Of a stretch of DNA of 64,000 bases, positions 2,386-60,902 are shown piece by piece. Source of the DNA: Eledone cirrhosa (taxonomy: Eukaryota). The translations under genes were made by a program, and so were the position numbers. The notes below the pieces were generated by a model that worked only from the letters and a program-made list of their open reading frames with translations, made no database searches and was not told where the DNA came from. Location: assembly GCA_964016885.1 (NCBI GenBank), contig OZ024743.1, forward strand, positions 108,810,001-108,874,000. Reading direction: 5' to 3'. The stretch's first letter is position 1. Each line of letters starts with the position of its first letter.

Positions 2386-2676
2386 AAATTATGTAAACTA
2401 TATATATGTGTTTATGTCTATATTGTATCTGTATTATTTTTGACCGTCGGTCAGTCAATGGCAACATTGAGGACCGAGTAAGTTAGATCGCAGATATAAA
2501 AGACAGCGAGAAGCGAAAACCAACCAAACAGTGAGTGTGTTCTGTTATTAATTCTGGCAATATTACGCAAATATGACCCTCCCCAAGTATAACAATATAT
2601 ATATATATATATATATATATATATATATATATATATAATATATAAGAACAAAAGATGGTTAAAAGAGTTCCATGTA

Positions 2677-2743
2677 TTTTATTATGCGCATTTCAAAAAC
2701 AAATAACATTATGCAATAATATTTGTGTTTTCATCAGATAAAA
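2677..2743 (-). ncRNA. Hammerhead ribozyme (type I)
   Basis: Reverse strand: ttttat-CTGATGA-stem II-GAAA-tgcgca-TA-ataaaa; perfect 6-bp stem I. Confidence 0.85.
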
Positions 2744-3671
2744 CAGGAAGACATGATATGAAGATTAAAAAACACTTGTGGATAGTTCAGTTTTAAATCA
2801 ACATATGAGAAGTAGTTTTAGATTGATGTGTGATATTGGGAAACATATTTTATTTAGAGGGGGGGTTGGAAAGGATGAAAAAAAGAGCAGGAGATGAGAG
2901 TAAAAGGTGGAAAGGGAGGAGTATAACGAGGAAGGATGAGATAGGAGGAGAGATGGGTGATAGAGAGAGAGAGATAGCTTTTATAACTGAGAAAGATATA
3001 TATGTTTTACATAGAGAGGTTGAAAACCGTTGGAAGATAATCTATCAATTAAAAGAATTTGAAAATTAACGAAGAGAAAAATAATGTAAAGTTAAGGTTT
3101 GTATATTGAGGGGTTTGATAATGTGTGCGAAGAAAAAGAAAATGTTAATATGTATTGAGAATAATGAGTTAGATGAAAGGGAGAAAAGATAATGAATTGA
3201 GGATGAATAATCTAACGTCAAAAAATGTATATGTTTACGAAGGATTTTTACAAGGTGATATAGAGTAAGAATGTATTGTATTATTCGCACATATTATCAA
3301 ACCCCTCAATATACAAACCTTAACTTTACATTATTTTTCTCTTCGTTAATTTTCAAATTCTTTTAATTTATACATTATCTTCCCACGGTTTTCAAACTCT
3401 CTATGTAAAACAATATATCTTTCTCAGTTATAAAAGCTATCTCTCTCTCTCTATGACCCATCTCTCCTCCTATCTCATCCTTCCTAATTATACTCCTCCC
3501 TCTCCACCTTTTACTCTCATCTCCTCCTCTTTTTTTCATCCTTTCGACCCCCCCCCTCTAAATAACATATTTTTCACAATATCACACATCAATCTAAAAC
3601 TACTTCTCATATGTTGATTTAAAACTGAACTATCCACAAGTATTTTATAATCTTCATATCATGTCTTCCTG

Positions 3672-3738
3672 TTTTATCTGATGAAAACACAAATATTATT
3701 GCATGATGATATTTGTTTTTGAAATGCGCATAATAAAA
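3672..3738 (+). ncRNA. Hammerhead ribozyme (type I)
   Basis: ttttat-CTGATGA-aaacacaaata...tatttgttttt-GAAA-tgcgca-TA-ataaaa; palindromic stem III ATGCGCAT. Confidence 0.87.
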
Positions 3739-3894
3739 TACATGGAACTCTTTTAACCATCTTTTGTTCTTATATATTATGTATACTCCAGTCCTACAAA
3801 CTGTAGAGTGCTTCTTATCCGATATCTGCATTGCTTTATTGTACTACAATAAAACTCACCTCCTACTATATATATATATATATATATATATATA

Positions 3895-58900: not shown

Positions 58901-60056
58901 CAGCTTAAAAAATTGCTCCATTTCTTTTTATGTAACTTTTTATCAGATTTTGAGTGCATTTCTTAACCGATTATAATTTTACTGAAAGAATGGATGGGAA
59001 ATAGTTACGGCTACGGTAAAAAATGTCTAAGTGTGAAAATCACTTGCATGGATACTGAGCTAAAGCTGATTAAAGAGCCAGTAAGGGCTTTTAGGTCACC
59101 ATGTATGTCGAGCCCCAATGCGCAAAAATGGGGCATGGTGTAAATAATCTGACTTCTTATTTGCATTGAAATTACTCAGATTGACTTGAATGTGCTATTT
59201 TAGTTTGAGCAAAACCTTTGTGCTGGCCAAGCGTCAATAGTAATTAACTGCATACCTACTTTTGCACACCCACCCCTGGTGTATACATGAATCCTAATAC
59301 AAACAATTCGTCCATATTTCCTTCAAAATAAAAGGAAATTAAAGTAAATTTAGCCTTATAAGATCGCAAAAAAATAATTTAAGTAGAAGACCTAACCGCC
59401 AACGCCATAGCAAAATGAAACAACAATTGAAAACAAAAAATAATCCAAACATTTAATAGAGAAGGTTTAGCCTAATAAGATCGCAAAATTAATTTAAGTA
59501 GAATGCCTAACCGCCAACGCCATAGCAAAATGAAACAACAATTGAAAACTGAAAATAATCCAAACGTTTAATAGGGAAGGTTTAACTTACCAAGTAATGA
59601 GGTCGCTGACTTTTTAACGCTTTGTAGCATACAAAAGTAGTACAGTTAAAATGAAGCTACTAAACAAATCGAACCAACAATTGAAATTCAATTTGAATGG
59701 CATCTACTTATAGCATCTACTTATTCTGACAAGAATCTAAATATCTAATCGTCTGGAAGTGGTGGGAATTTTTTATCGTCTGCGCATTCCATAAAAGGGA
59801 AATAACTCGTCTCTCATCTCTATGTATACATTTGAATTGAAAATTCAATACATTACAAGTTCGATTTTTACACATGGCGTGGGTCGATTTGAACAATTGT
59901 TTGACCGATGACTCCGCCGGACCTTCATCTTTAAGTGTAGCAATTCACCGAAATTTGAACGTACGGTTTAAGAGGAGATGTGTGCCGAAGGTTTTAGTAG
60001 CCAGACAGACAGACAGACAAACAGACTGACAGACACCTCAGTTTTATATATATAGA
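52915..60056 (-). mobile_element. Decayed autonomous-type Helitron
   Basis: 5' A|TC end at 60056, Rep/Hel ORF, partial 3' hairpin CCGAGCAACGG at ~52916-52927; ~117-bp tandem duplication at 59350-59585. Confidence 0.85.
53860..58540 (-). pseudogene. Helitron Rep (HUH) / PIF1 helicase, many frameshifts
   Basis: YNCAFQMTSFG, FKVQGQVYHLIG, GSPRYMHERTQDAM, DLFITFTCNPNW, IEWQK..PHAYILIW, IKYICKYVNKG, DAPGGTGKTF, ASSGIAATLLPGGRTAHS, VWDEC, LCNGTRL, FAMSINSSQ, FSHGQFY..CSRV. Confidence 0.93.
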
Positions 60057-60066
60057 TATATATATA

Positions 60067-60517
60067 CACTGTGCGGACGATAATTGTTCGCAAGATTACT
60101 GTCTAGGAAAAAAAATAAAACAGTAGTTTTATCTTTTAAGATATATTTATCAGTTTGTCTTCATGACTTATTCTTTCGATCTCACTCGATAAACCGGTCA
60201 TTGGCTTTGATGACGGCCTCAAGGCGGCCTAGGAACCGGCTACAGGGCTTCGTCACTGTTCCCCGACTTAGGCCCTAAAGGGACTTGTGATCCTGGCCTT
60301 CAGATCATCTTTCGTATTACAGCTAGATCTGTTGGTGTCTTGTTCCACTGCGCCCCACACAAAGAAGTCGAGGGGGTTGCAGTCAGCCGTGCTGGGAGGC
60401 CAGATGTCAGGAGATGTGTGGTCGACAAAGTTCTCTGAAAGCCAGGCTTGAGTCTTTCGGCTGGTATGGCAAGGCGCTGAGTCTTGCTGCTACACGTACG
60501 GCCTACCTGCAGCTACC
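60067..60517 (-). mobile_element. Tc1/mariner (maT/DD37D-like) 3' fragment
   Basis: Reverse translation gives QQDSAPCHTSRKTQAWLSENF...WPPSTADCNPLDFFVWGAVEQ; terminus ...CACAGTG|TA. Confidence 0.8.
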
Positions 60518-60902
60518 TGAAAATAATTAACTTAGGTATAATTAGCGCAGCTCATCGGAACTTCTAAAGGAATATAAATTAAAATATGGAAATAATGTTA
60601 TATGAATGTAATGTTCCATATATTTGTATTTCACTATGGTGTCTTGGGTATATCTATTGTCTGCCATAGTCGAACAGTATTCTTCTGTCGACTCTGCATA
60701 GGTAGATCCCACTCAATGCAGCCTCGACAGAAGAATACTGCTCGACTATGGCAGACAATAGATATACCCAGGACACCATAGAGAAATACAAATATATGGA
60801 GAATTACATTCATGTAACATTCTTTCCTTATTTTAATCTATATTCCTTTTGAAGTTCCGATGAGCTGTTCTAATTAGACCTAAGTTAGTTAATTATTTTC
60901 AA
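60518..60902. repeat. ~185-bp-arm palindrome with ~15-nt spacer
   Basis: 60518-60700 is the reverse complement of 60715-60902. Confidence 0.9.

Follow-up and report, generated by a model that had tools for sequence, protein, structure and literature searches.

Near-strict pairing of a long and a short 3' end in head-to-head insertions of Penelope-like elements in Eledone cirrhosa

The window analyzed here, a 64,000-nt stretch of the Eledone cirrhosa genome (OZ024743.1:108,810,001-108,874,000; assembly GCA_964016885.1, 3.0 Gb), is rich in inverted repeats built from Penelope-like elements (PLEs) and hammerhead-bearing sequences, which we lettered as families A, B, C, D, F, G, H/N, I, J, K, and R. 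Their insertions are head-to-head pairs of PLE 3' ends, nearly always one with a tail and one short; below, S denotes the short 3' end and L the long one (S plus the tail). A preliminary description of the window had listed 11 inverted repeats, and a self-BLAST search of the window recovered an inverted match at all 11 places (E values of ≤8e-40 for ten of them and of 8e-34 and 2e-53 for the J pieces), with an arm identity of 91 to 97% across the core in local alignments, while three of the repeats proved to be misbounded or ambiguous. Wherever polarity could be read from open reading frames (ORFs) and hammerhead cores, the 3' ends faced outward, as had been claimed.

Five of the repeats are clean long-plus-short pairs. 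First, a short-ended F arm (Hydra-type PLE 3' end; 2636-3284, minus strand), with a 146-nt spacer and a hammerhead core at 2737, is joined to a long-ended F arm (3281-3866, plus strand; tail at 3780-3866, hammerhead core at 3678). A mini foldback of family D (10182-10380) consists of a long end (10182-10320, minus) and a short end (10320-10380, plus). Both G (20601-22246), a non-coding tandem hammerhead unit of ~1.4 kb, and R (28432-30450), made of retrozyme-like 442-bp tandem hammerhead units with cores at 28681 and 29122 (minus) and at 29693 and 30135 (plus), have the short end on the left and the long end on the right. Finally, an A insertion (36852-41229) has its long end on the left (the 47-nt tail form, 36852-38146, minus) and its short end on the right.

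Three other repeats had to be redrawn or qualified. Position 43120, previously paired with 41270, was dropped as an insertion end: the (TA)32 found there is an expanded tract within the element, and the same order of tail, TA tract, and body was found in 13 of 14 other long copies. Because this tract is internal, the H/N insertion spans 41268-46876, long on the left and short on the right, in the classic layout of an inverted long-ended arm (41268-42164, minus), a direct partial unit (42280-43123), and a body (43195-46876, plus) that closes with the short end and carries a hammerhead core at 46738; the sampled F copy L203 has the same layout. Short (TA) tracts inside elements were seen to grow to 26 to 32 units (window 43130-43193; L238) and can mimic insertion ends. 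The repeat reported as 49660/50690 is instead two separate J foldbacks, one at 49658-50424 (long on the left and short on the right, with a plus-strand hammerhead core at 50324) and one at 50530-50691 (short end left, long end right). In the B insertion (Hydra-type PLE; reported as 4479/8926), a long-ended arm (4391-7007, minus; tail at 4391-4478) and a short-ended arm (7295-8926, plus) are separated by a filler (7008-7291) that combines ~175 nt from a satellite-like repeat with (TA)32 and with a 48-nt piece of the B short end in inverted orientation. These arms are 96.7% alike, the best other copies reaching 97.2%, and a single event is possible. The satellite-like sequence belongs to a tandem family of ~390 bp (window 7008-7183; L345-L350), in which no hammerhead was found; the piece adjoining a B arm at its 5' end is possibly a copy of read-through RNA.

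The remaining repeats are damaged or old. In D (23949-26827), the right arm (24233-26827, plus) has a short end and the left arm (23949-24232, minus) has lost its 3' end. The same loss affects the left arm (60518-60699, minus) of the K insertion (PLE 3' end, 60518-61287), where it is cut short beside a fragment that is presumably, by its motifs, Tc1/mariner-like; the right arm (60697-61287, plus) has a tail of 187 nt. The I foldback (47050-47364, reported as 47085/47350), with a hammerhead core at 47152 (minus) and tail-like sequence in its left arm, is old, and its ends were not classed by the script.

Beyond these 11 places, at least six additional insertions with two arms lie in the window, and five of them escaped repeat detection because their second arm consists of the tail only. 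One (318-2594) is an A arm (324-2594, plus) with a reverse transcriptase (RT), a CX4CxxC linker, and GIY-YIG (RVT_1 E value of 2e-4, below the cut-off), whose short end runs into (TA)n and whose partner is a 9-nt inverted micro-arm beside (TA)n (318-326, minus) that matches, by eye, the reverse complement of the A long end in other copies. In a second A insertion (3895-4252), a short-ended arm (3895-4197, minus) and a tail-only arm (4221-4252, plus) share no overlap. Two more belong to A as well, namely, 26856-27162 (short-ended arm, minus; tail-only piece, plus) and 48320-49600 (degraded tail-only arm, minus; short-ended arm at 48366-49600, plus), and the fifth is a B insertion (31119-31209) with a 61-nt short-ended arm (minus) and a 31-nt tail-only arm (plus). 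The sixth, the J foldback at 50530-50691, is the one with overlapping arms. A reading of the A copies at 324-2594 and 3895-4197 as a tail-to-tail pair was dropped, each having its own tail-only partner, and a DNA transposon or miniature element with terminal inverted repeats was rejected on account of asymmetric ends and arm lengths from <30 nt to >3 kb.

PLE ORF remnants were translated inside the window for A, B, C, D, and H/N; F and K are present as PLE 3' ends, their ORFs having been found in copies outside it, G and R consist of non-coding units that are arranged in tandem and contain hammerhead cores, and I and J are short hammerhead-bearing ends, no parent ORF of which was found among the sampled copies. 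An RT motif (YxDD) and a YIG core are present in A, B, C, and F, the YIG core in D and K, and the RT motif with cysteine motifs of the endonuclease (EN) region in H/N; Pfam RVT_1 matched A and N alone, both below the cut-off. F and B share DKT, a CxCX5C linker, CxxC and CxH near the end beside the conserved E and N, a C-terminal GIY-YIG, and insertion into (TA)n, C has DKT, the linker, CxxC, and CxH, and K has the linker; by eye, CCHH is absent from the Hydra-type translations, and the RWK position reads LRWT in F and LRWR in B. These features would place F and B in the Hydra clade, and C, D, and K in part, with A and H/N, in which the linker is CX4CxxC and the EN core contains paired cysteines, being of Neptune/Nematis type, all of these labels resting on motifs and not on an RT tree. 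The earlier statement that the repeats come from unrelated families was too strong: family D accounts for two of them, and F, B, C, D, and K show relatedness in their proteins. Intact hammerhead cores passed the descriptor in F, R, J, and H/N only; A, B, D, K, G, and I failed it, the cores of G and I being recognized by eye or with a loose pattern. No hammerhead family was among the 150 of 172 Rfam matches listed, which were of a low-complexity, microRNA type. Family C, a Hydra-type PLE by motif (10895-14741, minus), has a canonical-looking hammerhead core at 10984 (minus) near its (TA)n end, and no inverted partner of it was seen in the window.

Copies of these families were gathered by DNA search, from larger stretches, and from 200 kb at round coordinates picked blind, giving, after merging, 244 regions and 1.32 Mb of the same genome; most regions center on top search matches, which biases the sample toward young copies of the queried families. 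Throughout this sample, each family has a fixed S and a fixed L, spaced by 30 nt in H, 47 or 59 nt in A, ~62 nt in R, 74 nt in G, 80 nt in D, 84 nt in F, 86 nt in B, 96 nt in I, 98 nt in J, and 187 nt in K. Tails measure 30 to 187 nt rather than the 25 to 85 nt first given. Where F and B occur in tandem, the tail continues into the 5' untranslated region (UTR) and the ATG, in agreement with published descriptions of the pseudo-long terminal repeat (pLTR) plus tail, and it is continuous with the start of the next tandem unit in run-on copies of F, B, G, K, H/N, and R and in one A-like copy (L137); no run-on copy of D, I, or J was found in the sampled regions. Both sites lie at AT/ATT letters in several families. 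Many F arms, L and S alike, terminate exactly at position -257/-258 relative to the long end (window ~3609), where the upstream pLTR of a full-length F copy begins as well, and this position is likely the 5' end of the RNA; similar limits were seen in D (~-140) and I (~-257).

The sample contains 260 head-to-head blocks, 187 of which were classifiable, that is, had both outer ends visible and at S or L; the other 73 had one end at a locus edge or at neither fixed site. Across 10 families, 180 of the 187 pair an L with an S, against three L+L and four S+S blocks (binomial P of 8e-45 versus 0.5), and two of the three L+L cases (one in the window and L251, an alignment overrun) fall away on inspection by hand. 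The L arm lies on the left in 81 and on the right in 99 of the L+S blocks. Since S and L had been defined on part of the same data, a prediction for the far ends of 16 long F copies was written down before their sequence analysis, the inverted arm having already been seen: of 14 ends expected to be S, 12 were and 2, being broken, were unreadable, and both ends expected to be L were L, so that the prediction held in 14 of 14 readable cases (these 14 form part of the 187 blocks). L+S pairs of A, D, H, and I occur in the blind-chosen regions, and the non-coding passengers contribute seven (R) and three (G). A strict script found (TA)n on both sides of 124 of the 180 L+S insertions, on one side of 49, and on neither side of 7. 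A random distribution of arm ends, named in the preliminary description as a possible refutation, was not observed. F copies classified as two-armed number 80, versus 26 one-armed copies.

Same-family neighbors on opposite strands are joined directly head to head in 234 cases and tail to tail in 10; just 2 have TA separating the 5' ends. When mismatches at polymorphic sites were compared between real pairs and 500 shuffles, within-pair mismatch was 5.6% versus 33.7% in F (60 pairs; 0/500 shuffles as low), 21.6% versus 42.6% in B (12 pairs; 0/500), and 2.8% versus 53.1% in D (13 pairs; 0/500); A was less clear (10% versus 51%; 7 pairs; 7/500), and K offered no usable polymorphic sites. These alleles support the derivation of paired arms from one source element. 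The arms of a pair nevertheless differ, by 1.6 to 4% in the sample and by 3 to 9% in the window, which argues against an assembly artifact; neither such an artifact nor independent arm ages, both of which had been named as possible refutations, was borne out. Junction overlaps of 1 to 6 nt were seen in 85 of 180 cases, a descriptive count of BLAST overlaps without a null model. Head-to-head joins of different families amount to 13 adjacent pairs, most of them due to a short interspersed element within the H reference, with L137 and L317 as candidates. At L028, L074/L136, L234, and L086, head-to-head insertions have as their second arm a stretch of ORF or UTR from inside the element, ending at neither fixed site; by analogy with L1, chance internal priming is a possible cause.

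The geometry of the arms was read from those 168 L+S pairs whose junctions are close. In 108 of them, it is the S arm that extends further in the 5' direction, in 38 it is the L arm, and 22 are ties; in 32, the L arm is tail only, without any overlap with the S arm. The bias toward a further-reaching S arm agrees with an L-primed RT that trails behind on one shared RNA, and it does not discriminate between one RNA and two. A 4-bp stem, RCTC...GAGY, begins 6 to 15 nt past S in F (81/89), B (31/31), G (18/21), K (8/14), D (29/30), I (8/9), and J (5/7) and recurs past L in F (11/12), B (2/4), G (4/5), and K (1/2), compared with 0 to 1.4% at random positions; some sites have an A-U outer pair and others a G-C one.

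Reading the process from its end products, we think it probable that these insertions arise by programmed twin priming, in which each of the two sites serves as the start for one target end. The GIY-YIG endonuclease would cut both strands of (TA)n, and of the two target 3' ends, one would act as a primer at L and one at S, reverse transcription probably being carried out by the two halves of an RT dimer. Both complementary DNAs (cDNAs) would extend toward the 5' end of the RNA, stop independently, and be joined head to head, often via a few shared bases; an L-primed copy halting within the tail would yield an inversion with a small deletion, and one running past S would yield a palindrome. In Hydra-type elements, the RCUC...GAGY stem just 3' of each site might position the enzyme, and the non-coding hammerhead tandems G and R would owe their mobility to the same route, acting in trans. 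The two-ended priming suggested in the preliminary description gains support from the L+S pairing, the tail-only arms, the single source, and the excess of head-to-head joins, all of which bear on the products of priming.

Several observations weigh against this scheme. No priming step was observed, end products alone having been available, and for the anole enzyme, no strand difference in start site was seen (PMC11167929). Allele sharing could stem in part from gene conversion between adjoining arms. With one RNA and a trailing L-primed RT, stalling must be invoked for the 38 pairs in which the L arm reaches further; moreover, in L218, the only informative one of six three-copy insertions examined for their template unit, the inverted arm matches the upstream tandem unit at eight sites and the terminal unit at one, so that the S and L used there may have been kilobases apart rather than adjacent. 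The stem is absent from A (0/13), H (0/18 and 0/2), and R (0/30 and 0/19), and since these families obey the pairing rule without it, it is not the universal cause of pairing; besides, the motif was defined after the sequences had been seen, the families carrying it are related, and minimum-energy folds recover it at some sites only. One-armed blocks are common (137 S and 81 L): at their 5' ends, micro-arms matched the family's opposite end in four, the same end in none, and another family's end in four, 44 directly abut (TA)n, 37 gave no match, and 123 have no TA nearby, too few informative cases to extend the rule. Lastly, no target-site duplication or single preinsertion site could be read in (TA)n, where 53 testable insertions gave six low-complexity matches, none convincing, nor was a clean empty site found among the L+S insertions with their (TA)n flanks.

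Similar end products would also result from a single cDNA primed at L, if the endonuclease nicked it at the AT-rich S, its distal part became attached to the second target end, and the stub at L were trimmed or re-extended; this is our version of the "EN-mediated resolution" suggested for the tail by Craig et al. (PMC8557442). Such a route, which we consider unlikely, would likewise entail strict L+S pairing, a single source, and, in most pairs, a further-reaching S arm, and the AT/ATT letters at S and L resemble the ATT cut preference of the anole enzyme. On the other hand, the 5' ends of L arms do not pile up at S but are scattered between -30 and positions beyond -300. A ligation step, which is not known for GIY-YIG enzymes, would be required as well. 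In vitro, finally, RT starts at both sites on cleaved DNA (PMC11167929).

Less probable still as a general route is the folding back of a single cDNA or antisense template that is then copied into the second arm, a published proposal for head-to-head PLE repeats (Arkhipova 2013, PMC3846280). Some junctions are short perfect palindromes, such as the one where both F arms end at -258, and the 38 pairs with a further-reaching L arm would fit. Since a copy must lie within its template, however, folding back cannot yield the 108 pairs in which additional 5' sequence is found on the S arm and the tail on the L arm, 32 of them having arms that share nothing; it is contradicted for most insertions and survives as a minority route only. 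Independent insertions into the same (TA)n, or later rearrangement, would agree with the many nested insertions from different families held by the (TA)n runs here and with the B pair of the window being no more alike than other copies; the count of 234 versus 10 direct joins, TA between the 5' ends in only two, strict L+S pairing, and shared alleles make this very improbable. We give almost no weight to an assembly or chimeric-read artifact: no contig or read of four sequencing runs spanned the F junction at 3284, but repeats break such contigs, a contig from another sample carries a different head-to-head F junction, and arms diverge and have family-specific, asymmetric ends.

Two opposite cDNAs from one source, joined at their 5' ends, are the feature of L1-type twin priming found in these insertions. 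In L1, second priming uses variable sites, occurs in a minority of insertions, and leaves little overlap; here, in contrast, the second site is fixed, its use is common, and arms overlap by up to kilobases. Twin priming, an established process in L1, is said to have been described by Ostertag and Kazazian in 2001. Shared with L1, according to a recent preprint (bioRxiv 10.1101/2024.12.14.628481), are the RT extension of both DNA ends, their head-to-head joining, and a deletion or duplication at the joint.

The layout itself has already been published; it is sharpened here into a testable mechanism by the near-strict pairing, the tail-only arms, and the duplicated stem. Studies of EN-containing (EN+) PLEs report a partial tandem, an adjoining inverted copy that is truncated at its 5' end, a tail at one end, a pLTR hammerhead, and a preference for (TA)n, features that recur in our insertions, the hammerhead in some families (Craig et al. 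2021, PMC8557442; PMC3846280; Schostak et al. 2008, PMC2377424). Published tails measure 30 to 40 bp and are "often" or "optionally" one-sided, whereas ours measure 30 to 187 nt, pair almost strictly, and frequently form arms without overlap; the mechanism was called undefined (PMC8557442). F and B agree with the Hydra clade of that source in DKT, CxCX5C, CxxC, CxH, C-terminal GIY-YIG, and (TA)n, and they differ in having RWT (F) or RWR (B) instead of RWK. The purified anole PLE Poseidon PAc cuts and extends both strands in vitro, with two RT start sites that bound the tail, a binding region 3' of these sites, and a predicted dimer; the closing model in the accessible text posits one nick, second-strand synthesis, and repair, and the start sites are not linked there to two arms (Frangieh et al. 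2024, PMC11167929). The families R (442 bp) and G (~1.4 kb) resemble the animal non-LTR retrozymes of another preprint (bioRxiv 10.64898/2026.07.22.740005) in being non-coding tandems with type I hammerheads. Their L+S foldback signature, shared with the PLEs here, points to mobilization by a PLE enzyme, an argument not seen in the available part of that preprint. Our literature search, with older subscription papers (e.g., Evgen'ev and Arkhipova 2005 and Arkhipova 2006) and figures outside its scope, found no paper that states the pairing rule or applies twin priming to PLEs.

More tentatively, and at somewhat less than even odds in our judgment, two-ended priming could be the normal route of EN+ PLEs, a single RNA offering two docking sites to an RT dimer, with one protomer per site and each priming from one (TA)n strand. 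If so, the tail, the inverted pLTR, and palindromic mini-copies would reflect one mechanism, common to retrozyme passengers; many "solo" copies would have one arm of near-zero length (compare the 9-nt arm at 318-326), and the docking site in Hydra-type elements would be the duplicated RCUC/GAGY stem. The origin of tandem and inverted PLE structures has been described as an open problem in need of an in vitro system (Craig et al. 2021, PMC8557442). Such a system now exists (PMC11167929), and the pairing, the tail-only arms, and the stem are direct predictions for its assay. PLE RTs being the sister group of telomerase RTs, the engagement of two DNA ends is of wider interest. On a practical note, the pairing rule guides the annotation of PLE insertion bounds and explains the dense hairpin-like repeats of such genomes.

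Other elements share the window with these insertions. A degraded Helitron (53818-58625, minus) has Pfam matches above the cut-off to PIF1, Pif1_2B_dom, and Helitron_like_N. Two fragments, at 60050-60517 (abutting the cut K arm) and 30490-31030 (with imperfect inverted ends at 30448-30590 and 30926-31076), are presumably Tc1/mariner-like, judging from their motifs. A LINE-like family with microsatellite ends occurs in both orientations at 16519-17412, 19223-20002, 27618-28463, and 63500-63851, its copies being 89 to 95% alike, and a near-perfect 92-bp palindrome at 17409-17500 has 18-nt arms flanking (TA)27. Lastly, a short interspersed repeat of ~140 to 250 nt was seen in AT-rich tracts of PLE copies (L264, L284, L270, L275, L013, L205, L178, and L308), with duplications of 4 to 23 nt, and had inserted repeatedly in the (TAT)n tract of K.

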